This document shows, in pieces, positions 3,304-59,511 of a DNA stretch of 64,000 nt (position 1 is its first letter; each line of letters starts with the position of its first letter). Source of the stretch: an uncultured Candidatus Saccharibacteria bacterium (GTDB lineage Bacteria; Patescibacteriota; Minisyncoccia; CAIUEV01; JAHKAQ01); contig CAZRBB010000001.1 of NCBI GenBank assembly GCA_964598205.1, positions 156,199 through 220,198 on the forward strand. The letters are read 5' to 3'. The translations under genes and the position numbers were made by a program. Under the pieces are notes generated by a model. It was not told where the DNA came from and ran no database searches. It saw nothing but the letters and a program-made list of their open reading frames with translations.

Positions 3304-4581
3304 TTGATTTTTCTAAAAATAATGAAAGAAACAAAAATAATTACTAGATTGTGGGGCAAGATTAATCCTTGCCTTATTGACTCTTACATAAATGAAGGGG
3401 GCTATGTTTGCTTTGGAAAATGTCTTTCTGGAAAATTATCGCCAGAAAAAGTAAGAAAAATAATTATTGATTCCGGTCTTAGGGGAAGAGGCGGGGCAGG
3501 CTTTAAAACAGGAGAGAAGTGGGAACTTGCGACCTCTACGGCCAGAAGATCTAAAAAGAATCCTATCCTAATAATTAATGCCGACGAATCACAACCAGGA
3601 ACCTTTAAGGACCGGCTAATGCTAGAAAAAAATCCTCAGCTAGTAATAGAAGGAGCACTGATTGCCGCCTACGCTCTTTCGGCCAAGAAAGTTCTATTCT
3701 ATATCAATGGTAATTATCGGGAACAGTTTAAAATAGTAGAAGAAGCCATTAAACAAGCCGAAGCCAAATGTTTTCTAAGCACCACTCAAGAATCCGGGAA
3801 AAAAATAATTGTTCAGCCGATTCGTGGTGCTGGTGGCTATATTTACGGAGAAGAAACGGCTCAAATTAATTCTCTAGAAGGTCAACGGGGAGAGCCAAGA
3901 GTAAAACCGCCATATCCGGTAGTAAAGGGATTGTTTGGCCGGCCAACGGTGGTTAATAATGTGGAAACGATTGCCAACATTGTTCCTATTTTAGAATTAG
4001 GTGTTAGCGAATTTAAAAAATTTGGAGTGCCGGGTTCTTGGGGAACTAAATTGTTTTCTGTTTCGGGAACGGTTAAGAATCCAGGAGTTTTTGAACTCCC
4101 CCTGGGATCTTCATTGGGAAATGTCCTAAAAGATTGCTGTGGATGGATGGCTAATCAAAAGCAATTTTCTTTTGCAAGAATTGGTGGAACGGGAAAATTT
4201 TTAGGAAAAGAGGCTCTTTCGTATCCCTTAATTTACGGAGATGCTCCCGGAGAAATAAATGTTGGCTTGGGAGATATTCTGGTGGTAGATAAAAATGTTT
4301 CCTTAAAAGATTTAATGGAAGCTTGGTCTTCTTTCTATCGGCGAGAGTCTTGCGGACAGTGTACTCCTTGCCGGGAAGGAACTTTTATTCTGGCTCAAAT
4401 GGCAGAAAGAATGAAAGAGAATGATCTAAAAGAAAATGACTGGCTTAATTTAGAAAATCTTTTAGAAGCTTTAGAAAAAACGGCCCTTTGCCCCTTGGGT
4501 GGATTTGCTACCAAGCATTGGCGAGAATTTTTAAGGATTAAAAAGGAAAGTCGTTTAAAAAAAGAAAAAAATAAAAAATGA
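3304..4581 (+). CDS. NAD(P)H-binding FMN/[4Fe-4S] subunit of hydrogenase, NuoF-like (HydB/HndC-type)
   Basis: GLRGRGGAGFKTGEKW (NuoF NADH/FMN motif) and ESCGQCTPCREG (4Fe-4S). Overlaps the downstream hydA by 4 nt (ATGA). Confidence 0.9.
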   Translation: MIFLKIMKETKIITRLWGKINPCLIDSYINEGGYVCFGKCLSGKLSPEKVRKIIIDSGLRGRGGAGFKTGEKWELATSTARRSKKNPILIINADESQPGTFKDRLMLEKNPQLVIEGALIAAYALSAKKVLFYINGNYREQFKIVEEAIKQAEAKCFLSTTQESGKKIIVQPIRGAGGYIYGEETAQINSLEGQRGEPRVKPPYPVVKGLFGRPTVVNNVETIANIVPILELGVSEFKKFGVPGSWGTKLFSVSGTVKNPGVFELPLGSSLGNVLKDCCGWMANQKQFSFARIGGTGKFLGKEALSYPLIYGDAPGEINVGLGDILVVDKNVSLKDLMEAWSSFYRRESCGQCTPCREGTFILAQMAERMKENDLKENDWLNLENLLEALEKTALCPLGGFATKHWREFLRIKKESRLKKEKNKK

Positions 4582-19461: not shown

Positions 19462-19552
19462 AAGAAATATTCAACAGATTTAATCTAGCACTATAAAAAT
19501 TAATCGATAAGCATTTAAGAGGAATATCTCGTGTTTTTTAAAGCCAATGTTT

Positions 19553-19675
19553 TTTAAGGAGGCCCCTTGTTCTCTCCTACTAAAGTTTAAGCTTTTTAGG
19601 CAAAAGAGAAAAAGAACAAGGTGGAGCGAGGCCCGGTCGAGCGCGAGCGTACTCCGAAAAAAATATTGGCTTTAA
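19553..19675. repeat. GC-rich palindromic intergenic repeat, family 'GGAGGCYCCTTGTTC...GAACAAGGYGGAGCGAG...CGAGCGTACTCCGAAAAA' (copy A)
   Basis: ~80% identical over ~115 nt to 22268..22376. Contains internal inverted repeats. The 69-aa minus-strand ORF here is a translation artefact. Confidence 0.7.
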
Positions 19676-19757
19676 AAAAGAAACATAGATTTTTAAAAGA
19701 AAAAGCCGAGCGTCTCTTAGAGAGACAATTTGAATAGTTATTGGCCAGTTTCCAAAT

Positions 19758-19831
19758 GCGCGCCCGAGAGGATTTGAACCTCTGATCTCTGGCTTCGGAG
19801 GCCAACGCTCTATCCAGCTGAGCTACGGGCG
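19758..19831 (-). tRNA. tRNA-Arg (anticodon CCG)
   Basis: Reverse complement GCGCCCGTAGCTCAGCTGGATAGAGCG-TTGGC-CTCCGAA-GCCAG...GGTTCAAATCCTCTCGGGCGCG gives a cloverleaf with anticodon loop CTCCGAA. Confidence 0.85.
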
Positions 19832-49943: not shown

Positions 49944-51200
49944 ATGCTTTTTTCTAAATCTTTTTCCAAAACTAAAAAAGAAATAGGCAAGGAAGAGACC
50001 AGTCTTAACGCCCAGCTCTTACTGCGAGGTGGTTTTGCATCCAAGCTAATGGCAGGGGTTTATCATTTGCTACCGTTAGGATGGCGAGTAACAAGAAAGC
50101 TAGAGCAAATTATTAGAGAAGAAATGGACGCCATTGGCGGACAAGAAATGTTTATGCCGGCTTTGCAACCCGAAGAAAATTGGAAAAAAACCGGCCGTCG
50201 AGAATCAATTGGCGACGGGCTTTTTCTGTCTCAATCCCAAAGCGGTAAAGGTTTAGTTTTAGGGCCAACGCACGAAGAAGTGCTAGCGCCTTTGGCGGTG
50301 AACATAATTAATTCCTATAAAGATTTACCTTTTTCTGTTTATCAGTTTCAAAATAAATTCAGAAACGAAAAACGCGCCAAATCGGGATTATTACGCGGTC
50401 GGGAGTTTATTATGAAAGATCTTTATTCTTTTCATGCCGACGAAAAAGATCTAGATGCTTTTTATGAATTAGCCAAGGCGGCGTACCAAAGAGTCTTTGA
50501 GCGGTGCGGTATTTGGGACAAAACTTACCTAACTTACGCTTCTGGCGGTACCTTTGCCAAATATTCACACGAATTCCAAACCCTAACCGAATCTGGAGAA
50601 GACCTAATTTACATTTGCGACAATTGCCGAATAGCGGTGAATAAGGAAATAATCGCTGATCAAAAAAACGCTTGCCCAGAATGCGGAAACAAAAAGCTTA
50701 GAAAAGAAAAGGCGGTAGAAGTAGGCAATATTTTTAAACTGCGCACCAAATTTTCTGAACCGTTTAATCTTTTTTACTTAAACGAAAAAGGAGAAAAGTG
50801 TTTAGTAGAAATGGGTTGTTACGGCATTGGCTTGCAACGCTTAATGGGCATTATTTCCGAAATAAGCCACGATGAAAAAGGAATTATTTGGCCCCAAACA
50901 GTAGCGCCATTTAAGATTCATTTGGTGGGGCTAGATTTAGACAATCCAGAAATAGCCAAGCAGGCAGATGACTTATATCAATCGTTCCAAAAGGCTAGAA
51001 TAGAAGTATTGTACGATGATCGCCCAGACAAACAGGCAGGGGAAAAGTTTGCCGATGCCGATTTAATTGGGATTCCGTATCGGGTAGTGGTTAGCAAAAG
51101 GACAATGGCCAAGGACGGTTTTGAATTAAAGAAAAGGGAAGAAGCGGGTGATAAGGCTCAAATACAAAGCAAAGAACAATTGCTTAAGATATTGGGCTAA
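49944..51200 (+). CDS. proS: Prolyl-tRNA synthetase (short form lacking editing domain)
   Basis: Class II aaRS motifs and a ProRS-type N-terminus (LLLRGGFASKLMAGVYHLLPLGWRV). 418 aa. Confidence 0.85.
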   Translation: MLFSKSFSKTKKEIGKEETSLNAQLLLRGGFASKLMAGVYHLLPLGWRVTRKLEQIIREEMDAIGGQEMFMPALQPEENWKKTGRRESIGDGLFLSQSQSGKGLVLGPTHEEVLAPLAVNIINSYKDLPFSVYQFQNKFRNEKRAKSGLLRGREFIMKDLYSFHADEKDLDAFYELAKAAYQRVFERCGIWDKTYLTYASGGTFAKYSHEFQTLTESGEDLIYICDNCRIAVNKEIIADQKNACPECGNKKLRKEKAVEVGNIFKLRTKFSEPFNLFYLNEKGEKCLVEMGCYGIGLQRLMGIISEISHDEKGIIWPQTVAPFKIHLVGLDLDNPEIAKQADDLYQSFQKARIEVLYDDRPDKQAGEKFADADLIGIPYRVVVSKRTMAKDGFELKKREEAGDKAQIQSKEQLLKILG

Positions 51201-51233: not shown

Positions 51234-52298
51234 TTGTTTTTTATGTTGGATAAAATTTTTGGCCATTTTTCTCACGACATTGGCATTGACCTTGGTACGG
51301 CCAATACTTTGGTTTATGTTAAAGGCAAGGGGATTGTGATTAACGAACCTTCTGTAGTAGCGATTAACACTAAGACCAATCAAATTTTGGCAATTGGGAG
51401 TGAAGCCAAAAAAATGGTGGGCAAAACTCCCGGTCATATTATGGCCAAGCGACCATTAGCCGACGGCGTAATTTCTGACTTTGAAGTGACCGAGCAAATG
51501 CTGAAATATTTTATTAACAAAGTCCACAAGGAAAGTTTTACCCTTTTGCCTAGACCACGAGTAATTGTGGGGATCCCTTCTGGTGTAACCGATGTAGAAA
51601 GGCGCGCGGTGCAAGAGGCAGCCAAAAATGCTGGTGCTCGCGAAGCCTTTTTAATAGATGAACCAATGGCAGCGGCGATTGGCGCGCGACTACCGGTTCA
51701 GGAAGCGGCCGGCAATATGATTGTAGACATTGGTGGAGGCACTACGGAAATTGCGGTAATTTCTTTGGGTGGCGTGGTGGTTTCTCGGAGCTTGCGAGTG
51801 GCCGGAGACGAATTAAACGAAGATATTGTACGCTACGCTAGAGAAAGATTTAATTTACTTTTAGGAGAAAAAACGGCCGAAGATGTAAAGATTGCTATTG
51901 GTTCGGCCTACGAAATGCCCGAAGAAGTAGAAATGATTATCCGTGGTCGGGATTTGGTAACGGGGCTTCCCAAAGAAGTAATGATTACCGATGTCCATAT
52001 CCGCGAAGCCATGAGTCGTTCGGTGCGCATTTTAGTTTCCAATGTTAAGGCCATGATTGAAGAAACTCCACCCGAACTGGTTGCCGAAATTATGCAAAGA
52101 GGTATTATCTTGGCAGGCGGTGGAGGATTGTTGCGCGGTTTGGATCGCTTGATTTCCGAGCAGGTAGAAACACCAGTTAAAGTAATGGAAGATCCATTAA
52201 CAGCGGTGGTGCGGGGAGTAGGAATTGTGCTAGAAGATTTAGACAACCTTAGGAGCGTTTTAATAGAAGGTGAAAACGAAAAAGCGCCTAAGTGGTAG
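51234..52298 (+). CDS. mreB: Rod-shape determining actin homologue MreB
   Basis: IGIDLGTANTLVYVKGKGIVINEPSVVA phosphate-1 motif. 354 aa. True start may be the internal ATG at 51243. Confidence 0.9.
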   Translation: MFFMLDKIFGHFSHDIGIDLGTANTLVYVKGKGIVINEPSVVAINTKTNQILAIGSEAKKMVGKTPGHIMAKRPLADGVISDFEVTEQMLKYFINKVHKESFTLLPRPRVIVGIPSGVTDVERRAVQEAAKNAGAREAFLIDEPMAAAIGARLPVQEAAGNMIVDIGGGTTEIAVISLGGVVVSRSLRVAGDELNEDIVRYARERFNLLLGEKTAEDVKIAIGSAYEMPEEVEMIIRGRDLVTGLPKEVMITDVHIREAMSRSVRILVSNVKAMIEETPPELVAEIMQRGIILAGGGGLLRGLDRLISEQVETPVKVMEDPLTAVVRGVGIVLEDLDNLRSVLIEGENEKAPKW

Positions 52299-52319
52299 AA
52301 TAGAGTAAAAATAATTTTT

Positions 52320-52392
52320 GTCCCGGTAGCTCAGTGGATAGAGCAACAGCCTTCTAAGCTGTGGGCCGCAGGTTCAAGTCCTGCCCGGGACG
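52320..52392 (+). tRNA. tRNA-Arg (anticodon TCT)
   Basis: GTCCCGG-TA-GCTC-AGTGGATA-GAGC-A-ACAGC-CTTCTAA-GCTGT-GGGCC-GCAGG-TTCAAGT-CCTGC-CCGGGAC-G. Confidence 0.85.
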
Positions 52393-52396
52393 CAAG

Positions 52397-52433
52397 TAAA
52401 AAAAGAATGACCAATTTGGTCATTCTTTTTTTA
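52397..52433 (+). terminator. Rho-independent terminator after tRNA-Arg
   Basis: aagaatgacc-aattt-ggtcattctt hairpin flanked by A-run and T-run (bidirectional-looking). Confidence 0.7.
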
Positions 52434-52444
52434 CTTTTGACTAG

Positions 52445-52720
52445 CGCAGGACTTGAACACGAAGGGGGTCGGGGAAACTGTAGTTTCCCCGTTGGGGGTG
52501 ACAGCGAGTCCCGTTGAAAACGGGACGAGCGCCAGAGGGCGGAAGCCCTATGGAGAGCGAGCAAAGCGAGCGAGTGAAAGTCCTGCCATTAATATCTTGA
52601 ACGGGGATGGGGTCGGGAAACCGGGAGGTTTCCCGTGGCGGAGGAATCGGAACCGATGGGTTCCGAAGCGGAGCGAACCGCAGCGGAGCGGAGGTGAGTG
52701 AGCAGTGAAATTCCTGCCCG
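52445..52720 (+). ncRNA. GC-rich structured tandem element (two ~135-nt units), candidate structured RNA or tRNA-derived repeat; identity unknown
   Basis: Both units run from 'cttgaac' to 'gtgaaa(g/t)tcctgcc'. Each carries two strong hairpins at equivalent positions with different sequences (ggggaaactgtagtttcccc vs gggaaaccgggaggtttccc; cccgttgaaaacggg vs ggaaccgatgggttcc). All six reading frames are open, which is typical of non-coding GC-rich DNA. Confidence 0.4.
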
Positions 52721-52893
52721 AGGATATTCAAAATATTTAATATACTATAAAAATCTTCGAATCAATCATTGAATAATTTGTTATTGATCTTTTACAAAAT
52801 AAAGACCGCCAGTATTTGCCACTGGAAAGCAATGAATCATAAAGTTCCTAGTACACTAGGAACTAGGAACTTTTTTTGTTATGATATAAGCAC

Positions 52894-53887
52894 TATGAAA
52901 ACATCTAAGAAAATACTTGAATATATAGCGAAGAATGGTCACGCAAGCGGAAAGGAGCTTGTTGATAGTCTTGGTGATATTACCCCGAGAGCCGTGCGTA
53001 AGCAGTTAAAAAATCTTTTAGATGCTGGCGAGCTAAAAAAGATTGGGCGTCCGCCAAAGGTTTTCTATTCTTTAGTTCCCAAGATAGTAATGAGCACGCT
53101 TACGCTCCGAAGAGATTTTTTAAATGTGGATTTGAAAACACGCAATAGTATTGATAGTCAATATCTCTACATTACGCCTGCCGGTGAGATGAAGCTAGGC
53201 TGGGATGGATTTGTGGCATGGTGCGAAAAGACGAAACAGAATCCGGAAAAGACAGCGAAGGAATACTTATCAACTCTTCGGAAGTGTGATGTTTTTTTTA
53301 GAAATGGACTGATTGATGGGATGGGAAAAATCCAAAGCACATTCAAAGATGTATACCTTGACCAACTTTTCTATCTTGATTTTTATAGTATTGAGCGATT
53401 TGGAAAGACAAAAATCGGTCAGTTGCTTTTGCATGCCAAAAACAGTCAGGATCGGAAACTGATGAAACCATTGATTGATGATATCCGACCAAGGGTTGTG
53501 GCGTTGATAAAAAAGTATTCAATCGAAGGCGTTTTGTTTGTTCCTCCAACCGTGAGGCGTGAAATTCAGATTATGAAAGAAATCGAAAGAAACCTAAAAC
53601 TTCCCATAAGCACACTTGTTGTTGCAAAAGTGAAAACACAAATTGCAGTTGCGCAGAAAACGCTTTTAAAACTTGAGGATCGAATAGAAAATGCAAAGAA
53701 AACGATTGTTGTTGAGGATACTAGGACGTATGGCAATATTCTTCTAATAGATGATGCTGTTGGATCAGGATCGACTCTAAACGAGACCGCCGCTCAGATT
53801 CGAAAAAAGGGTTTGTGTCGTGGGAAGATTATTGGATTAGCGATTGTGGGAAGTTTCAAAGGATTTGATGTTATTAGTGAGATATAA
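52894..53887 (+). CDS. Winged-helix DNA-binding domain fused to a C-terminal type I phosphoribosyltransferase (PRTase) domain
   Basis: N-terminus KKILEYIAKNGHASGKELVDSLGDITPRAVRKQLKNLLDAGELKKIGRPPKVFYSL (wHTH). C-terminus VVEDTRTYGNILLIDDAVGSGSTLNETAAQI (PRPP-binding loop). Start set at ATG 52894, preceded by tatgatataa. Confidence 0.6.
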
Positions 53888-53950: not shown

Positions 53951-55069
53951 ATGTATTACAAAAACCATTTAGCCGAATCTAATCTAAAGAATACATTACA
54001 AGAAGAACTAGCAAAAAAAGACAAAGAACTAGCTGAGTTAAAAGCTGAAAAAGATCGTAATTTTGCAGAGCAATTAGCAAAAAAGGAATCCGAGATTGCT
54101 GAAATGAAATCAAAAATCACCAATGCTGAAACGGAGAAAAAATTAGCTGTCACACAAGCAGTCAATTCCGTAGAAAAAGAAAGGGATGATTTTAAAATCA
54201 AACTGCAAAGCAAAGAACATGAAATGCAACTCTGTGAAGTTTCATTAAAAGACAAATATGAAAATGAATTGAAATTAAAGGACGAAATGATTGAACGATA
54301 CAAAGACATGAAATTAAAACTCAGCACGAAAATGATCGGTGAGACACTTGAGCAACACTGTGAAACTGAGTTTAACAAAATTCGTGCCACGGCTTTTCCA
54401 AAAGCCTATTTTGAAAAAGATAATGATCCCAAAACTGGCAGCAAGGGTGATTTTATCTATCGCGAAACTGATGAAGACAAAAACGAAATCATTTCTATAA
54501 TGTTTGAAATGAAAAATGAAAGTGATGAAACCGCCACTAAAAAAAGAAATGAAGATTTTTTGCACGAGCTTGATAAGGACCGTACCGAGAAAAAATGCGA
54601 GTATGCTGTTCTTGTTACGTTCTTGGAAGCCGAAAATGAATTATATAACACCAGCATTGTTGATGTCTCTCATAAATACCCCAAAATGTATGTAGTTCGA
54701 CCACAATTTTTTATCCTAATCATTACACTACTCCGCAACGCAGCCATGAATTCTCTAAAATACAAAGCCGAACTGGCATTGATGCGAACACAGAATATTG
54801 ATGTTACTACTTTTGAAGGCCAATTAAATGATTTTCGCGAATCATTTGGCAGAAATTTCAGATTGGCATCCGAAAAGTTTAAAAACGCCATTGGTAGTAT
54901 TGATAAATCGATTGAGCAACTTCAAAAGACCAAAGAGAGTCTTTTGCGATCTGAAGATAATCTGCGCCTGGCTAATAATAAAGCTGATGATTTGACAATA
55001 AAGAAGTTGACACGTGGGAATTCTACGATGAAGGCAAAGTTCGAAGAGCTTCCCGATAAAAAGGAGTAA
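53951..55069 (+). CDS. DUF2130-family protein (coiled-coil N-terminus plus predicted PD-(D/E)xK-like C-terminal core)
   Basis: [62 protein letters not shown]...EYAVLVTF matches the DUF2130 conserved block as I recall it. The D...E.K spacing is suggestive of a nuclease fold. Confidence 0.6.
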
Positions 55070-55306
55070 GCCACTTGAACTCGGAACATAATTCACCCCT
55101 AACCATCCTCCCATCTCTCCAAACCCCAAAATAAATTTAATTTAGACGCTTGCCCACCATAGCTTTAGCGAAGGAGGGATAGCTCGTCAAAAAAAAGAAT
55201 ATCTCCGTTAATTCCATAATGAGTCTTATTATGGAATTAACATTTCCAATATTGGAATCATAATATCTACTTCAAACCTTCCCATCTTTTGACCTAATCT
55301 CTCCAA

Positions 55307-55489
55307 ATGCTAACCAAAATTTTAAAAAAATTAACTCTAAGGAAAGAACAGAAAGAATCTCCCCGCAAATCTTTTTTAGAGATGCCCATAAGAGACCAAA
55401 GGAAAATCATCAAAAAAGCGGTAGAAGAATCCAACAAGGAACAACGCAAACTCGTAGAAAGATACGAAAATAAATTTGGCCACGCTTAG
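55307..55489 (+). CDS. Hypothetical small basic protein (possible regulator of the downstream Fic gene)
   Basis: 60-aa K/R/E-rich ORF with no motif. Confidence 0.2.
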   Translation: MLTKILKKLTLRKEQKESPRKSFLEMPIRDQRKIIKKAVEESNKEQRKLVERYENKFGHA

Positions 55490-55564
55490 GGAAAAAGTTG
55501 CAAAGCACAGAGCTAGGGGAGTAGAAAAGAGATTTCAATGCTATGCACAAGCAGTGTGCAGACA

Positions 55565-55594
55565 TTGACAAATATGCACAAAAAACAGTAAAAT
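55565..55594 (+). promoter_or_regulatory. Sigma70-like promoter (TTGACA-18-TAAAAT) with overlapping TGCACA/TGTGCA palindromes upstream of the Fic gene
   Basis: ttgacaaatatgcacaaaaaacagtaaaat, with inverted repeats gcacaagcagtgtgc and atgcacaaa...tttgtgcat around it. Confidence 0.5.
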
Positions 55595-55625
55595 TTGTGC
55601 ATAACAAAAATAATCCAAAAACACT

Positions 55626-56714
55626 GTGTTTAATCGCAATATTCCCCACAATCAACTGCCATTACTTCCACCCGATTTTAATTTCAACGATGTGGATCTT
55701 TTAAAGTTGGTGAACAAAGCCAATAACTCTTTGTTCGAACTAAAAGGAATGGCTAATGTTTTGCCCAACAGCGGAATTTTAGTTTCCCCATTGACGATTC
55801 GTGAAGCGGTTGCCAGTAGTGGAATTGAAAATATTAACACAACTGTGGCGGAAGCCCTTAAAGCAGATGTTATTTATGAAAAGTCAGAACTCTCCGGAGC
55901 CGAAAAAGAAATCCTAAGGTATCGGGACGCTCTTCGTGAGGGATATAAAATGCTTAAGAAGAATGAGTTTTTAAACACGAATAGTTTTGTTGAAATTCAA
56001 TCAGTATTGGAGCCGAATAAAAAAGGTATTAGGAAAATTCCCGGAGTTGCAATTAGGAATTCAAAAACCGGCGAAGCCATTTATACCCCGCCGGAAGGAC
56101 ACGATGTTATATTAAAAAAACTCAAAAATTTTGAAGATTATTTTAATGATCAAAAAAACTTTGATGACATTGATCCACTAGTACGCATGGCGGTGATGCA
56201 TTATCAATTTGAGTCCATTCATCCATTTTTAGATGGTAATGGAAGAACTGGTAGAATAATTATGATTCTCTATTTGGTGCTAACAAAGCGTTTGGAATTG
56301 CCAATTTTATTCTTAAGCAAATATATCCTAGAAAACCGAGATGAATATTATAAAAAACTACGCGGAGTTACGGAAAACAAAGAATGGCTAAATTGGGTTT
56401 TTTATATCCTTCGGGGTATTGATATGCAAGCGCAGGAAACAAGAAAAAATATTTCACAGATCAAAAAATTAATGGAAGAATACAAAGAAATTTCTCTAAA
56501 AGAGGGCGTTCATATGACATCTCGCATGCTGGATTATCTTTTTTCAAATCCGTTTTATTCGCAAAAAAAGATGGCGGAGAGTCTCAGTATCCATAGGAAT
56601 ACTGCTGCAAAATATTTTCAAGAGCTAGAAAAATCAAAAATTGTACAGAAATTCAAGCACAAGCAAGGGTATATTTATTATAATCAAGCATTTCTTAATA
56701 TCATGAGCTATTAG
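55626..56714 (+). CDS. fic: Fic-family protein (class II: N-terminal inhibitory motif plus Fic core), C-terminal wHTH
   Basis: HPFLDGNGRTGR Fic active-site motif. N-terminal SSGIEN fits the (S/T)xxxE(G/N) auto-inhibition motif. Confidence 0.85.
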   Translation: MFNRNIPHNQLPLLPPDFNFNDVDLLKLVNKANNSLFELKGMANVLPNSGILVSPLTIREAVASSGIENINTTVAEALKADVIYEKSELSGAEKEILRYRDALREGYKMLKKNEFLNTNSFVEIQSVLEPNKKGIRKIPGVAIRNSKTGEAIYTPPEGHDVILKKLKNFEDYFNDQKNFDDIDPLVRMAVMHYQFESIHPFLDGNGRTGRIIMILYLVLTKRLELPILFLSKYILENRDEYYKKLRGVTENKEWLNWVFYILRGIDMQAQETRKNISQIKKLMEEYKEISLKEGVHMTSRMLDYLFSNPFYSQKKMAESLSIHRNTAAKYFQELEKSKIVQKFKHKQGYIYYNQAFLNIMSY

Positions 56715-56961
56715 AGTTTTCGATGTAACTTTAAGAATGAATTCTTAAAAATTGTTTTTGGTATAAATAAAACATTCAATCTTGAAAGGGAAAGAGGTGT
56801 GCGATTCCCCAAAGCCATCTTAACTTGGCTGGGGTAAAGTATGCTGTGCAAACCCTCTCAAAACCCCTTATAATTCGGTACAATTACCGTATTAAGTTCA
56901 GACAAACCCTTATTTTGGGATGCTGATCCCGCCAAAATTAATCTCAATAAGAACAATCAAA

Positions 56962-57933
56962 ATGGCCAAAAAAGAAATTATTATCTATCAATCAAAAAAC
57001 GGTGCTCTTAGGTTTAGGGGAGATTTTAAAAAGGAGACTATTTGGGCGAGCTTGCAACAAATTGCCAATCTTTTTGAAACCGACAAATCCGGTATCTCTC
57101 GCCATATTCAAAATATTTATCAAACTGGTGAATTGGAACCAAAGGCAACTGTTGCAAAAATTGCAACAGTTCAAACCGAGGGGAATCGAACAGTAAAAAG
57201 GGAAATTGAGTATTACAATTTGGATCTGATTCTTTCTGTAGGATATCGTGTCAATTCCAAAACAGCCACGAAGTTTCGCCAGTGGGCAACCAAGACACTG
57301 CGCGAGCATATTGTTACGGGCTACACCATCAACAAAAAGCAAATCGCTAAAAATTACGCTCAATTTTTACAAGCAGTTGAATCGGTAAAAAAGCTGTTGC
57401 CGGCCGGCGGGCAAATCGAGGTAGGAGACACGCTGGAGCTGGTTAAAATGTTTGCCAATACTTGGATGTCTTTGGATGCGTACGATAAGTCTTCCCTGCC
57501 CAAATCCGGCTCAACCAAAAAACAAGCCAAAATAACGGCGGAAGAATTAACGGAAGCAATCGCGGAATTAAAGAGGGACTTACAAAAGAAAAAGGAAGCT
57601 ACGGAACTTTTTGCCCAAGAACGCCAAAAAGAAGCGATTGCCGGTATTGTGGGGAATGTATTTCAATCGGTTTTTAGTCGCGACGCTTACGAAACGCTGG
57701 AAGAAAAATCGGCGCATCTGCTTTACTTTTTTGTAAAAAATCATCCGTTCGTTGACGGCAACAAAAGAAGCGGAGCGTTTGCGTTTGTATGGTTTTTAAA
57801 TAAAGCTGGGCTTTTACAAAAAGACAGAATGTCTCCCGAAGCGCTGACTGCGCTTACGCTTTTAGTAGCTGAAAGCAATCCTAAAGACAAAGACAAAATG
57901 ATCGGCCTAGTGTTGCAACTGCTTAAGAGGTAA
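56962..57933 (+). CDS. RhuM-family N-terminal domain fused to a Doc/Fic-fold domain (death-on-curing-like)
   Basis: N-terminus IIIYQSKNGALRFRGDFKKETIWASLQQIANLFETDKSGISRHI (RhuM). C-terminus NHPFVDGNKRSGAF (Doc-type HxFx(D/N)GNKR). Start at ATG 56962. Confidence 0.8.
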   Translation: MAKKEIIIYQSKNGALRFRGDFKKETIWASLQQIANLFETDKSGISRHIQNIYQTGELEPKATVAKIATVQTEGNRTVKREIEYYNLDLILSVGYRVNSKTATKFRQWATKTLREHIVTGYTINKKQIAKNYAQFLQAVESVKKLLPAGGQIEVGDTLELVKMFANTWMSLDAYDKSSLPKSGSTKKQAKITAEELTEAIAELKRDLQKKKEATELFAQERQKEAIAGIVGNVFQSVFSRDAYETLEEKSAHLLYFFVKNHPFVDGNKRSGAFAFVWFLNKAGLLQKDRMSPEALTALTLLVAESNPKDKDKMIGLVLQLLKR

Positions 57934-58109
57934 AGATAACAAAAGCGATTAGCTACATTCTCTTTCCCCTAAATGTCGGCCAGAGAAAAGTTTTCACTGT
58001 CAATGAAAACAATCCCAGAATAGTTTTCAATATAAATGAAAACATTTGCTTTAAAAAAGTCATCAGGAAAAAGCACCATGGTTGATAGTTGACTGTAAAC
58101 TGTAAACTA

Positions 58110-58604
58110 ATGAAAAATAAATTAAGAAAATCAGTTATTGTGACTTTTTTCCTCCTGATGTTATTAAGCGTTTCCGTATCTTTATTTAATTTTTGGCAAA
58201 TAAAAAATCTAAAGAGAACTAGCAACGCAAGGATAGAAGAGCTGGAATACTTCTACAATGATTTTAGGGAGATTTCTAGAAAAGAACCAAAGAAGAATAT
58301 ACCGGAAGAAATTTCTCCGGAAAACACAGAAAAAGCCTGGGCAATTCATGAGCAGGATAACGAAAACTTAAAAGAAAGATCGCTGAAACTTTCTCCAGAC
58401 GGAACAAAGAAGGCTTATTTTCAGGAAAAGTTTATCTCAGATATTAAAGATATTGGGAATACCGATTATATTTCTTTAATCGTAGAGAAAAAAAACGGGG
58501 ATAATGAAATCTATTTCAAATTCCACCGCCCAAACCCTATCAAAACCCCATATAATTTGGTACAATTACCACATCAAGCAAGAGTAAAACTGCAAAATAC
58601 TTAA
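58110..58604 (+). CDS. Hypothetical signal-anchored protein
   Basis: N-terminal TM helix. The 3' end overlaps a conserved 40-nt intergenic motif, so the real stop may be earlier. Confidence 0.35.
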   Translation: MKNKLRKSVIVTFFLLMLLSVSVSLFNFWQIKNLKRTSNARIEELEYFYNDFREISRKEPKKNIPEEISPENTEKAWAIHEQDNENLKERSLKLSPDGTKKAYFQEKFISDIKDIGNTDYISLIVEKKNGDNEIYFKFHRPNPIKTPYNLVQLPHQARVKLQNT

Positions 58605-58622
58605 TATTTTAGCGTTCAGAAA

Positions 58623-58874
58623 ATGACCCAAGACGATCTAGGAAAATATTTCTGGGATGTTGATGTTAAAGAGATTGATTTTGGCAAACATGCCCGTTTT
58701 GTTATTGAAAGAATCCTAAATTTTGGTAACGAAGAATCTGTTAGATGGCTACGAAAGCGCTATTCCGACAATGAAATAAAAGAGGTCGTTTTAAAGAGTA
58801 GAAATTTAAATAAAAAAGCTCGTAATTTTTGGAACATCATTTTTCAAATTAATTTTTCTAAGAACAATGGATAA
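58623..58874 (+). CDS. Small protein upstream of, and overlapping, the AbiEii-like nucleotidyltransferase; putative cognate antitoxin
   Basis: 83 aa. 8-nt overlap with the downstream gene, typical of TA pairs. Family not recognised. Confidence 0.4.
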   Translation: MTQDDLGKYFWDVDVKEIDFGKHARFVIERILNFGNEESVRWLRKRYSDNEIKEVVLKSRNLNKKARNFWNIIFQINFSKNNG

Positions 58875-59511
58875 TAATCTTCATTTGGAAGTTTTGCCGG
58901 AAGATCAGAGGCTATTATTACAAAAATTAGCAAAGGAAGACTGGCTTGGGGATTTTTATTTGGCCGGAGGAACGGCCTTGGCCTTGCAAATAGGACACCG
59001 CGAATCTATTGATTTTGATTTCTTTTCTAAAAAAGAATTTGGGCATCAAGAGATTATTCAAAAGCTGGAGAGAATCGGTTCCTTTGAATTGTTTCAGGGA
59101 GATGAGGGCACTATCAATGGTCGGCTTTCAGAAATTCGGATTTCTTTTTTTTACTACAAGTACAAAATCGTAGAAGATCCAATAGTTTATGAAAAATTAA
59201 ACATTGCCAATAAGCTTGATATTGCTCTTATGAAATTAGAAGCCATCTCGGGCCGTGGTAGTCGTAAGGATTTTATTGACCTTTATTTTCTCTTAAGAGA
59301 GTTTTCCTTAGAAAGACTATATTCTGATTATCCTCTAAAATACGGCCAAGGATTGGATAATAAATATCACTTATTAAAATCTCTAGCCTATTTTGAAGAC
59401 GCGGAAAAAGAACCTATGCCAAAAATGCTCATTTCTATTGATTGGGAAAAAATAAAATCGGCAATCTTAAAAGAGGTTGGCACAATTGAACAAAACATTT
59501 TAAAAGAATAA
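58867..59511 (+). CDS. Nucleotidyltransferase, AbiEii/DUF1814-like toxin family
   Basis: FYLAGGTALALQIGHRESIDFDFF matches the GGTAL...HR.S.DiDf motif of PF08843-type nucleotidyltransferases. Confidence 0.65.
   Translation: MDNNLHLEVLPEDQRLLLQKLAKEDWLGDFYLAGGTALALQIGHRESIDFDFFSKKEFGHQEIIQKLERIGSFELFQGDEGTINGRLSEIRISFFYYKYKIVEDPIVYEKLNIANKLDIALMKLEAISGRGSRKDFIDLYFLLREFSLERLYSDYPLKYGQGLDNKYHLLKSLAYFEDAEKEPMPKMLISIDWEKIKSAILKEVGTIEQNILKE

Follow-up and report, generated by a model that had tools for sequence, protein, structure and literature searches.

Copies of an apparently undescribed small hairpin-forming element behind Patescibacteria tRNA genes

What is the GC-rich block behind the tRNA-Arg(TCT) gene of this contig? 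The richest 150-nt GC segment of the window, that is of the whole stretch of 64,000 nucleotides that was analysed, falls in the block at 52446-52719 (61% GC versus 37% overall), in agreement with the first-pass annotation, which had described a strikingly GC-rich region after the tRNA-Arg terminator. Both strands fold better than shuffled sequences (z = −4.6 for the plus strand and −6.4 for the minus strand). The block consists of two copies of an apparently undescribed small hairpin-forming element that is located behind tRNA genes of Patescibacteria and probably represents a selfish repeat of a new, tRNA-associated kind, less likely a tRNA-mimicking RNA. The features of the locus are the following.

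52320..52393, plus strand: tRNA-Arg(TCT), called by ARAGORN and by Rfam's model for tRNA (73.5 bits); gene to which the elements are attached
52396..52434, no strand assigned: bidirectional terminator-like palindrome in the spacer between the tRNA and unit 1, with an A-run, a 10-bp stem (GAATGACCAA/TTGGTCATTC) and a T-run
52446..52458, plus strand: 5′ arm of unit 1, GCAGGACTTGAAC, exact antisense of tRNA-Arg positions 53-65 (T-loop and 3′ strand of the T-stem)
52459..52573, plus strand: core of unit 1, subfamily A, 53.6 bits against the family model R1
52574..52587, plus strand: 3′ arm of unit 1, GTGAAAG (T-loop look-alike) followed by TCCTGCC, shorter than in canonical copies
52596..52602, plus strand: 5′ end of unit 2, of which only CTTGAAC (T-loop antisense) remains, the outer arm being gone
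52603..52704, plus strand: core of unit 2, subfamily B, 83.6 bits against R1
52705..52719, plus strand: 3′ arm of unit 2, GTGAAAT followed by TCCTGCCC, diverging after the tRNA-matching part (decayed)
52737..52765, minus strand: possible sigma-70-like promoter aimed into unit 2, TTGATT-N17-TATTAA, by direct reading

The block at 52446-52719 comprises two units of ~130 nt with perfect hairpins and ends that resemble a tRNA T-arm. The two-unit layout proposed earlier was confirmed, with 74% identity between the 5′ parts (52452-52497 versus 52596-52641), and so were all four of the perfectly paired hairpins that had been noticed (52470-79/52482-91, 52614-22/52627-35, 52508-15/52519-26 and 52647-54/52659-66). 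Each unit is closed by AGTGAAA(G/T)TCCTGCC, at 52573 and at 52704, which resembles GGTTCAAGTCCTGCC of tRNA-Arg. In the numbering of this tRNA, G53 corresponds to 52372 and N73 to 52392; the distance from its end to the arm of unit 1 is 53 nt, and the palindrome in the spacer forms the centre of a 43-nt inverted repeat (I1). The start of unit 1 (GCAGGACTTGAAC, 52446-52458) had been described as the exact reverse complement of the T-arm, and this was verified for tRNA positions 53-65. The 3′ arm of unit 1 is a copy of tRNA-Arg positions 57-66 (AAGTCCTGCC, 10 nt) and that of unit 2 a copy of positions 60-68 (TCCTGCCCG, 9 nt), the family median being 16-17 nt. In the MFE fold the arms of unit 1 pair over 9 bp (GCAGGACTT/AAGTCCTGC); a terminal helix was looked for in unit 2 and none was found.

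The core of unit 1 contains the invariant GGGGTCGGG (52465-52473), the hairpin H1 (52470-52491), TTGGGGGTGAC, a hairpin at 52508-52526 and a GGAA-tetraloop hairpin with the AGCCCTATGGA motif (52532-52553); the subfamily-A module is also present in L012, L027, L028, L044, L097, L119 and L136. After the junction ATTAATAT (52588-52595), unit 2 shows GGGGTCGGG (52609-52617), H1 (52614-52635), GTGGCGGA, the hairpin H2 (TCGGAACC/GGTTCCGA, 52647-52666) and a variable GAGCG-rich tract, and its nearest relative in the alignment is L085. Both units fit the core pattern GAAC-N5-9-GGGGTCGGGRAA-N10-12-CCCG with a 9-bp hairpin H1 as well as model R1. Subfamilies A and B are represented by a single unit each in the window, both partly decayed, and the tandem pair is not a duplication, since the units represent different subfamilies of one dispersed family. 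The covariation that had been read from the two units stands for the H1 pair, which is homologous and whose differences match family-wide compensatory changes; it does not stand for the second hairpin pair (cccgttgaaaacggg versus ggaaccgatgggttcc), which alone is no evidence of covariation because its members derive from two different subfamily modules. Neither blastn nor model R1 revealed further copies of the element elsewhere in the 64-kb window. An independent contig (L006) begins exactly at 52720.

Members of the family were collected by motif scanning and with the covariance model R1. The pattern scan of genomes yielded at least 120 loci, and the true homologues L012 and L014 were recovered by pattern scans. 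Of the seven matches to the first metagenome pattern, five fell in coding DNA by chance, roughly a third of those in the genome scan represented a coding motif of high-GC Actinobacteria and were removed by requiring H1 pairing, and scans of viral contigs with two patterns gave chance matches only. Among the matches listed, model R1 recovered 116 copies in 98 sources, nearly all of them MAGs of Patescibacteria, with labels including Saccharibacteria, Paceibacterota, Jorgensen-, Yonath-, Moran-, Nomura- and Berkelbacteria. Several copies occur per genome at different tRNAs, and tandem arrays and truncated remnants are present within the family. The median element has 135 nt and a GC content of 55%, host genomes being at ~45% GC.

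A canonical copy is composed of a 5′ arm antisense to tRNA positions ~51-72, the completeness of which varies, a conserved core with GGGGTCGGG and two covarying hairpins, a T-loop-like GT(G/T)(A/C)(G/A)AT and, directly after this 3′ T-loop look-alike, an exact copy of tRNA positions ~61-74. The core lies between T-loop look-alikes in inverted orientation, (A/T)TYGAAC on one side and GT(G/T)(A/C)(G/A)AT on the other, and is ordered as GAAC-N5-9-GGGGTCGGGRAA..., H1, then H2 or the subfamily-A module, then a variable hairpin. Rfam searches of the window and of canonical members, in gathering and E-value modes, matched only tRNAs; the family is without an entry in Rfam 15, and no description of the element was found by full-text search of the literature. 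A paper on group I introns in Patescibacteria tRNAs deals with position 35/36 only.

The linkage to tRNA genes is tight. A tRNA or tmRNA gene on the same strand lies within 400 nt upstream of 98 of the 113 usable copies (background 5.5%), and nine of the 15 remaining copies are located at locus edges. The element typically follows a few tens of nt downstream, in the orientation of the tRNA; the tRNAs concerned belong to at least 18 amino-acid classes, and one copy lies behind tmRNA. The 3′ arm matches the 3′ end of the upstream tRNA exactly over a median of 16-17 nt, most commonly starting 13 nt before N73 and ending 1 nt after it, and the 5′ arm matches the adjacent tRNA in antisense over a median of 12 nt. 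The earlier impression of tRNA-derived unit ends is therefore borne out at the level of the family, with a 3′ arm that copies the adjacent tRNA and a 5′ arm that runs antisense to it; the possibility of a decayed tRNA duplicate, which had been considered as well, is not supported. At genes without CCA, this triplet follows the 3′ arm in only 6 of 44 cases, i.e. the arm copies the gene (N73-C-A...), and the 5′ arms are without TGG. An origin of the arms from mature tRNA, at the RNA level, was rejected, since CCA is not convincingly enriched and TGG is missing.

Pairing between the arms is variable. Full-length arms in L032, L116 and L042 begin opposite position 72 and leave N73 unpaired, and in L105 the arms match each other (AAGGA/TCCTT) and not the tRNA, an indication that pairing between the arms may be under selection. 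Strong outer helices of 12 bp (passing −12 kcal/mol) are formed by 37% of copies versus 15-17% of controls and by neither unit of the window, where the outer helices reach only −8.8 and −8.3 kcal/mol and are thus at control level. A hairpin with a T-run lies in the spacer between tRNA and element in 64 of 86 copies (74%) and after the 3′ arm in 61 copies; the idea that the mirrored trailer reflects an inverted duplication was rejected, as palindromic terminator hairpins explain it. Eight copies are followed by another same-strand tRNA within 60 nt. In L036 the start of the following tRNA is only 2 nt away from the element, and this and similar tRNA-embedded copies are therefore almost certainly transcribed. 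Some tRNA-element pairs recur across genomes, namely at tRNA-Ser(CGA) (L105/L118) and tRNA-Glu(CTC) (L028/L097), and each 3′ arm tracks its own tRNA.

Structure under selection, as proposed earlier from the two units, is borne out by the 116 homologues, across which H1 and H2 covary: 96.4% of their cells are paired versus 83.3% in shuffles, double-change cells number 248 versus 75, none of 500 shuffles reached the observed H1/H2 values, and slid controls were 25-64% paired. The RNA nature that had been assumed along with it did not stand equally well, given the near absence of G-U pairs and the terminator-like hairpins between tRNA and element. G-U pairs make up 0.3% of helix cells versus 4.0% in the acceptor and T stems of 194 tRNAs of the same loci and are thus 13-fold rarer. 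The structure is also specific for one strand. Four-nt H1 loops are of the GNRA type in 40 of 95 cases on the plus strand versus one on the minus strand, a tandem G.A/A.G forms on the plus strand where ATCGAAC faces GTGAGAT, the GC skew of the plus strand is positive in all 113 of 113 copies, and the linkers of the element are purine-rich. A pseudoknot between the GTGGNGGA linker and the H2 loop was rejected, as inspection of the alignment showed no consistent covariation.

Several observations resemble the behaviour of mobile DNA. In alignments read by eye, each of L138, L136 and L091 has cores that are 93-97% identical to one another behind different tRNAs, with arms specific to each tRNA, and in L138 and L091 similarity starts again past the 3′ arm. 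An empty site was found in L140, a relative with an 86% identical MreB that keeps ProRS-MreB-tRNA-Arg(TCT) and is without the element. Independent assemblies break at the element. The synteny part of the island-boundary hint also held: conserved synteny with relatives ends at tRNA-Arg(TCT), and accessory-looking genes lie downstream of the element (DUF2130, two Fic proteins and, at 6 kb, an AbiEii-family toxin). The downstream wHTH-PRTase gene was unusable for synteny, as it is not conserved in relatives. Near 95 copies no consistently adjacent protein family, recombinase or reverse transcriptase was found, and no HUH (Y1) transposase gene lies within 3.5 kb of them. An HTH-LAGLIDADG-like protein was rejected as the mobilising enzyme, as it occurs at only five loci and not in the window; its conserved member P0308 is located in a tRNA cluster without the element. 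A serial template-switch model was likewise discarded, since it predicts duplication of the whole spacer after the 3′ arm, which was not seen.

We favour, with moderate confidence, the explanation that 52446-52719 represents two decayed copies of a Patescibacteria-wide, non-autonomous and strand-specific hairpin repeat, i.e. mobile DNA that targets tRNA 3′ ends. Such a selfish repeat would be mobilised in trans and aimed at the T-arm/3′ end of tRNA genes, and its tRNA-matching arms would be re-templated at the DNA level from each new target gene. The conserved structure would be that of one single strand, the G-rich, tRNA-sense one. By analogy with REP/REPIN, IS200/IS605-derived elements and integron attC, this folded strand is more likely single-stranded DNA than RNA, because G-U pairs are scarce, terminator-like hairpins occupy the spacers and the 3′ arm copies the gene and not the CCA-tailed tRNA. 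The copies in the window would be old insertions, with unit 1 inserted later, between unit 2 and the tRNA; unit 2 appears to be the older one because its 5′ arm is lost and its 3′ arm has diverged.

This explanation has to be weighed against a number of observations. No transposase, recombinase or reverse transcriptase is linked to the element, and we know of no insertion chemistry that would copy the target both directly and in inverted form and leave direct repeats of 12-44 bp, the left one set apart from the element by a spacer. The strand-specific GNRA loops, the tandem G.A, the purine-rich linkers and the co-orientation with the tRNA are equally expected of a functional RNA, and the copies followed closely by same-strand tRNAs almost certainly reach the transcript. 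Recurring tRNA-element pairs could mean long-term retention and co-evolution instead of repeated insertion, G-U depletion could stem from a few inherited double changes that define subfamilies, and near-identical cores within a genome could arise by gene conversion.

The main alternative is that the element is a functional non-coding RNA gene of the plus strand, which is co-transcribed with the tRNA and acts as a tRNA-acceptor mimic; we consider this possible, but unlikely. The paired arms would rebuild the acceptor and T-stem of the neighbouring tRNA as a 'minihelix' with an N73 overhang, which RNase P, RNase Z and the CCA-adding enzyme may process like a tRNA and which could, for instance, engage enzymes or toxins directed at tRNA 3′ ends, as their decoy or their substrate. 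An orientation that always equals that of the tRNA, copies inside tRNA operons with spacers of 2-30 nt (L034, L036, L039, L042), covarying hairpins, GNRA loops (40 versus 1) and tandem G.A confined to the G-rich plus strand, the N73 left unpaired by full-length arms and the selection on pairing suggested by L105 are consistent with such an RNA. However, the strong outer helix is restricted to 37% of copies and absent from both units of the window, a hairpin and T-run separates most copies from the tRNA with no room for a promoter of their own, and G-U pairs are much scarcer than in the tRNA stems beside them. The sporadic occurrence over at least 18 tRNA classes, the empty site in a close relative and the decayed or truncated copies also argue against it.

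A small RNA of the minus strand, running from the promoter-like site at 52737-52765 to the terminator at 52396-52434 and serving as an antisense regulator or as a tRNA-primed primer-binding site, is very improbable. Its 5′ part would be complementary to the tRNA 3′ end. The block TTTTTATAGT..ATTAAAT..TTGAATAT at the candidate promoter recurs upstream of tRNA-Ser, a gene of the minus strand, most copies are bordered by bidirectional terminators, the minus strand has the lower fold z-score (−6.4), and the tRNA-matching 3′ arm, the would-be primer-binding site, is the best-conserved arm. On the other hand, GNRA loops favour the plus strand 40 to 1, the junction would hold U.C/C.U mismatches, and copies wedged between two plus-strand tRNAs leave no space for a minus-strand promoter. 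The complement of CCA is absent (CCA after only 6 of 44 arms at non-CCA genes), and mature tRNA could therefore not prime. The site at 52737-52765 was not called by the consensus promoter scan, and its assignment to the element is uncertain.

The first-pass annotation had also suggested an att-like origin. Accordingly, the units would be attL/attR scars of an integrase island in the tRNA-Arg 3′ end, with the GC-rich parts as arm-type recombinase-binding DNA. Direct repeats of the segment from the tRNA T-loop to the 3′ end are present, the classic footprint of the T-loop class of tRNA integrases, and the end of synteny at tRNA-Arg with accessory-looking genes downstream would fit. This interpretation is nevertheless largely refuted and scarcely credible: Pfam recognised no integrase or other recombinase among all the ORFs of 150 aa or more in the following 11 kb (52.7-64 kb), a search of the window with the 18-mer of the tRNA 3′ end gave no additional copy at up to 3 mismatches, the repeats enclose merely ~130 nt, the same core occurs with matching arms behind at least 18 tRNA classes and tmRNA, and no recombinase is enriched beside 95 copies.

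That the block is a diverged known RNA (RNase P RNA, tmRNA, SRP RNA, 6S RNA, part of a group II intron) or encodes a small protein can practically be dismissed, since GAAAGTCC, the word complementary to CUCCAUAGGG, a weak match to group-II D1-D4 (E = 0.57) and ORFs of 82 and 96 aa across the region are opposed by the lack of any family at gathering score and of anything relevant at E ≤ 10 (52300-52900) or E ≤ 1 (canonical member), by an ARAGORN result without tmRNA, by the position of the two RNase P-like words on opposite strands, and by ORFs that have no Pfam match and whose frames are not conserved between the units (indels). The judgement by eye that nothing here fits RNase P, tmRNA, SRP or 6S RNA agrees with the Rfam check, and the RNase P-like words seen in the first reading (GAAAGTCC, CCCTATGGAG) are explained by the tRNA-derived arm and the conserved subfamily-A motif AGCCCTAT[AG]GA.

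Patescibacteria have tiny genomes with little intergenic DNA, and yet many of their lineages hold several tRNA-attached copies of a structured element. In a tentative and rather doubtful extension, the family would be a new class of tRNA-gene-specific mobile element with programmable arms, or a set of expressed tRNA-acceptor mimics that are tailor-made for individual tRNAs. In the first case, the arm would be an internal segment flanked by conserved element sequence (L138, L091) that is rewritten for each tRNA target and may guide a trans-acting enzyme, by analogy with the guide sequences of IS200/IS605 or the bridge RNAs of IS110; in the second case, the mimics could for example be decoys against toxins attacking tRNA 3′ ends. 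If the element is mobile, its target-copying arms suggest an insertion mechanism that is unlike those of known MITEs, REPs and integrases and in which pairing with the tRNA gene may act as the guide; as an RNA, it would form a family of custom mimics of tRNA ends. The element accounts for otherwise puzzling GC-rich spacers, for the repetition of tRNA 3′ ends and for breaks in assemblies beside tRNA genes in Patescibacteria MAGs, in which model R1 can be used as a tool for its annotation.

Known systems resemble the element in part. Like tRNA-like structures and acceptor-TΨC minihelices (viral TLS, mascRNA, the tmRNA domain), about one third of the copies form a ~12-bp helix with an unpaired N73, but a ~100-nt structured core replaces the T-loop cap and the helix is absent from most copies. 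Rfam models of the tRNA clan did not match the element, and a minihelix of acceptor and T-stem was rejected for the units of the window, whose arms are at control level. Primer-binding sites of retroviruses and LTR elements share the exact match of ~15-18 nt to the part of the tRNA 3′ of position 58-60; in contrast to these, the arm is sense on the G-rich strand, copies the gene (N73-C-A) and has no reverse transcriptase nearby. A tRNA-primed retroelement was rejected on the basis of the rare CCA and the lack of a reverse transcriptase near the 95 copies, and group II introns are reported to be absent from Patescibacteria (PMC13011429).

A MITE, i.e. a non-autonomous DDE transposon, was rejected because only the T-loop-like ends of ~7-10 nt are common to the copies, with outer arms differing from copy to copy, and because the direct repeats of 12-44 nt, with a left copy 5-60 nt away from the element, are not a flanking TSD of fixed length. 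An integron attC (RYYYAAC ... GTTRRRY) was rejected as well, since the ends (A/T)TYGAAC and GT(G/T)(A/C)(G/A)AT do not fit at position 4 and cassette ORFs are lacking. Integrase att sites in tRNA genes (T-loop sublocation) likewise show a direct repeat from the T-loop/T-stem to the 3′ end, leave the tRNA intact and make use of tmRNA; unlike these, the repeats described here enclose ~130-200 nt, vary in length between 12 and 44 nt, are accompanied by an inverted copy of the target, and occur without an integrase at no fewer than 18 tRNA classes within this one family.

Rickettsia palindromic elements, Correia elements of Neisseria and the GC clusters of yeast mitochondria are likewise selfish small palindromes in reduced or AT-rich genomes, recognisable by their hairpins and GC content, dispersed as numerous copies and decaying in place. 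These elements insert at many kinds of sites, even in genes, and have fixed termini, without exclusive use of tRNA tails or target-derived arms. REP/BIME-REPIN (RAYT) and IS200/IS605 derivatives are also short, non-coding, GC-rich, hairpin-forming intergenic repeats of many copies, which are often arranged in tandem or near terminators, lack an internal enzyme gene, depend on a trans-acting enzyme and are strand-specific, with structure conserved over sequence. Target recognition in IS200/IS605 reportedly involves base pairing with an internal guide. Whereas the ends of REP and IS200/IS605 are identical genome-wide and include no copy of the flanking target, the arms of the tRNA-tail element comprise 14-20 nt specific to the neighbouring tRNA, and its site is always the 3′ end of a tRNA or tmRNA gene.

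The two GC-rich hairpin units downstream of tRNA-Arg(TCT) are decayed members of a new, phylum-wide family of Patescibacteria, the tRNA-tail hairpin element. The locus is organized as follows (window coordinates):

49944-51200: ProRS, preceding MreB and tRNA-Arg(TCT)
51234-52298: MreB, directly before tRNA-Arg(TCT)
52320-52393, + strand: tRNA-Arg(TCT), downstream of ProRS and MreB
52396-52434: palindromic hairpin, preceded by an A-run and trailed by a T-run, between tRNA-Arg(TCT) and the GC-rich block
52446-52719: GC-rich block with units 1 and 2
53951-55069: DUF2130
55626-56714: Fic
56920-57933: RhuM-Fic
58867-59511: AbiEii-family nucleotidyltransferase toxin

Repeat finding and composition analysis confirmed the two units, their layout and their hairpins as described in the first-pass annotation. 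The block is the highest-GC 150-nt stretch in the 64 kb (61% vs. 37% overall), and both of its strands fold far better than shuffled sequences. The repeat finder returned a 46-nt 5′ part common to both units (74% identity), four perfect hairpins of 8-10 bp and the common unit end AGTGAAA(G/T)TCCTGCC, which resembles GGTTCAAGTCCTGCC of tRNA-Arg(TCT); positions 53-65 of this tRNA recur, exactly reverse-complemented, as the 13-mer at 52446-52458. The earlier view that no known RNA fits was upheld, as the Rfam search of the region returned tRNA only, with no other match even at E ≤ 10, and canonical family members had no match in Rfam. ORFs crossing the block gave no family match, no further element copies were found in the 64-kb window, and literature searches turned up no description of the element.

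Homologues were searched for with two patterns and a covariance model. The first pattern, comprising motifs common to both units, identified L012 and L014 in metagenomes as true homologues, and a second, shorter one built on the conserved 5′ part matched at least 120 genome loci. The core hairpin H1 was paired in about two thirds of the matches listed from the latter scan; nearly all of these H1-paired loci belong to MAGs whose label is a Patescibacteria lineage or just 'bacterium', and six carry the label Bdellovibrionales, Gammaproteobacteria or WS2, while the other matches listed represent a coding motif of high-GC Actinobacteria outside the family. The covariance model R1, trained on 47 subfamily-B units and window unit 2, detected at least 116 copies in 98 sources and scored unit 2 with 83.6 bits and unit 1 with 53.6 bits, both on the + strand, and the membership of both units is held with very high confidence. 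Median element length is 135 nt and GC content 55% (45% in the surroundings), and the + strand of the element is G-rich in 113/113 copies. Read in the + orientation of the window, a canonical copy consists of the following parts:

Part 1: 5′ arm, ending in (A/T)TYGAAC
Part 2: 5-9 nt, then the invariant GGGGTCGGG
Part 3: H1, CGGGRAAAC-loop-GTTTYCCCG
Part 4: purine-rich linker GTGGNGGA
Part 5, subfamily B (window unit 2): H2, NNNAAACC-loop-GGTTTNNN
Part 5, subfamily A: module TTGGGGTGAC-hairpin-AGAGGGCGGAAGCCCTAT(A/G)GA
Part 6: further variable hairpin, often present
Part 7: GT(G/T)(A/C)(G/A)AT, then the 3′ arm

The subfamily-A module is carried by window unit 1 and by loci L012, L027, L028, L044, L097, L119 and L136. 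Since units 1 and 2 belong to different subfamilies, they are not the tandem duplication they had been taken for. H1 and H2 covary strongly across the family, with 96.4% of cells paired (83.3% in shuffles) and two-sided changes in 248 cells (75 in shuffles), values equalled by 0 of 500 shuffles, and slid controls were 25-64% paired; the proposed selection on structure is thereby substantiated. Of the compensatory changes reported between the two window units, those in the first hairpin pair are an instance of this family-wide covariation, whereas the second pair compares non-homologous subfamily modules. The mini-hairpin GCGAAGC (in GATAGCGAAGCGTC) is common: many copies in the family alignments A2/A3 (e.g. 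L032, L055, L065, L067, L111 and L137) carry it as an insertion that separates the T-loop look-alike from the tRNA-derived portion of the 3′ arm. The heptamer GCGAAGC is known to form an unusually stable DNA hairpin.

A same-strand tRNA gene was present within 400 nt upstream in 98 of the 113 usable copies (background expectation 5.5%), at a median distance of 42 nt, and 9 of the 15 remaining copies lie at the edge of the available sequence. The tRNAs represent 18 amino-acid classes, and one copy stands behind tmRNA. The 3′ arm exactly reproduces the 3′ end of its own upstream tRNA gene (median match 16-17 nt), most commonly starting 13 nt before N73 (~position 60/61) and ending one base past N73; CCA falls within the match only where the tRNA gene encodes it, and where repeats are longer (36-64 nt), whole units have been duplicated in tandem. 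The 5′ arm runs antisense to roughly positions 51-72 of that tRNA (median exact match 12 nt). Its T-loop/T-stem part is always present and its acceptor part often degenerate, so that just 37% of copies have a strong 12-bp outer helix (controls, 15-17%), and both window units lack it. The suspected tRNA origin of the unit ends thus holds throughout the family. Of its arms, unit 1 retains 13 nt of antisense and 10 nt of direct tRNA copy, and unit 2 has lost the 5′ arm and keeps 9 nt of direct copy; the better preservation of the unit nearest the tRNA fits two successive insertions. In the tmRNA-associated member (L030 7144-7290, - strand) the arms match the tmRNA T-arm and acceptor 3′ end, and CCA follows the 3′ arm despite the tmRNA gene encoding no more than C74.

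Several observations point to mobile or selfish behaviour of the family. Near-identical cores (93-97% identity in the alignments, from T-loop look-alike to T-loop look-alike) stand behind different tRNAs within single contigs, namely L138 (tRNA-Arg and tRNA-Gly), L136 (tRNA-Lys and tRNA-Arg) and L091, with arms specific to each tRNA. Similarity returns past the 3′ arm in L138 and L091, which marks this arm as an internal, rewritten segment. Copies at different tRNAs in several genomes, tandem arrays, truncated remnants and copies with a partly deleted tRNA were also observed, and no protein family was consistently adjacent among 95 copies examined.

In relatives with MreB 86-89% identical, the order ProRS-MreB-tRNA-Arg(TCT) is kept and the sequence beyond differs. 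The element is absent behind tRNA-Arg(TCT) in L140 (part of a 1.2-Mb contig), whereas L141 (3666-3760) carries there a different, ~50-nt GC-rich hairpin insert, CCTGCCTCGCCGCTTGCCTGCCGTGAGGCAGGCAGC.... An AT-rich spacer lies ahead of this insert, and behind it 11 nt of the tRNA 3′ end are directly repeated (CTCGGGACGCA). The layout of this insert is that of the family and its core is unrelated. L140 has a ~250-nt GC-rich, hairpin-rich non-coding stretch between MreB and tRNA-Arg(TCT) (3560-3800) without a match to R1. L142 (3602-3843) and L143 (3602-3804) contain a ~80-nt GC-rich insert in the D-loop of the tRNA-Arg(TCT) 5′ half, which is truncated after the anticodon and tandemly repeated; both contigs end within the repeat. 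This arrangement may have arisen in assembly, or it may be another, third type of small insert that targets tRNAs. Breaks in independent assemblies fall inside the tRNA or precisely where unit 2 ends on the right (52720). The accessory or defence-like gene run at 53951-59511 is replaced in relatives by other genes, e.g. DUF3800 in L140, so that tRNA-Arg(TCT) marks the edge of a variable region, with no integrase and no distal repeat.

The ~50 nt adjoining unit 2 on its right (52737-52790, - strand) contain an ordered block, TTTTTATAGT..ATTAAAT..TTGAATAT with a G-start 4-5 nt later, which recurs at 19462-19510 (- strand) immediately ahead of tRNA-Ser(CGA), a minus-strand gene. The block possibly represents a type of promoter or leader that this organism uses for stable RNAs. 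The spacer between the co-oriented tRNA-Arg(CCG) and tRNA-Ser(CGA) (19462-19758) is, at 297 nt, long for a tRNA pair, and R1 found no family member in it.

Structure resides on the + (tRNA-sense) strand. Of 95 four-base H1 loops, 40 are GNRA on this strand and 1 on the - strand, and ATCGAAC opposite GTGAGAT forms tandem G.A/A.G pairs on the + strand and U.C/C.U on the - strand. GNRA loops and G.A pairs stabilise RNA and single-stranded DNA alike. The main rival reading, an expressed tRNA mimic, draws on eight copies that are embedded in tRNA operons and hence almost certainly transcribed; in L036 the following tRNA begins 2 nt past the element. Three observations speak against a conventional RNA gene: the share of G-U pairs is 0.3% of cells in element helices (5/1709) but 4.0% in acceptor and T stems (93/2328) of 194 tRNAs from the same loci; a hairpin with T-run occurs in 64 of 86 tRNA-element spacers (62 of these on both strands) and right behind the 3′ arm in 61 copies, leaving no room for a promoter; and the sequence reproduced in the 3′ arm is that of the gene instead of the CCA-tailed tRNA. 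With moderate confidence, the family is considered a DNA-level selfish repeat. A minus-strand RNA product is unlikely for the family: in the window, the promoter-like block shared with the region upstream of tRNA-Ser suggests it, but the GNRA loops and tandem G.A pairs point to the + strand. An att scar of an integrase, the island origin initially suggested, was rejected (no integrase in 52.7-64 kb, no distal repeat, many different tRNAs used), as were a classical MITE (outer arms varying between copies, direct repeats of 12-44 nt, a spacer parting the left repeat from the element) and a tRNA-primed retroelement (CCA complement absent, no reverse transcriptase near the copies). The phylum is reported to lack group II introns (PMC13011429).

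As a selfish DNA repeat, the element would be inserted by an enzyme encoded elsewhere, with the T-arm/3′ end of tRNA genes as the site, and its arms would be rewritten by templating. The window + strand has a positive GC skew, and the structured strand would lie on the lagging-strand template if the tRNA is co-oriented with replication. On balance, our analysis favours a strand-specific single-stranded DNA structure, like that of REP/REPIN, IS200/IS605-type elements and attC sites.
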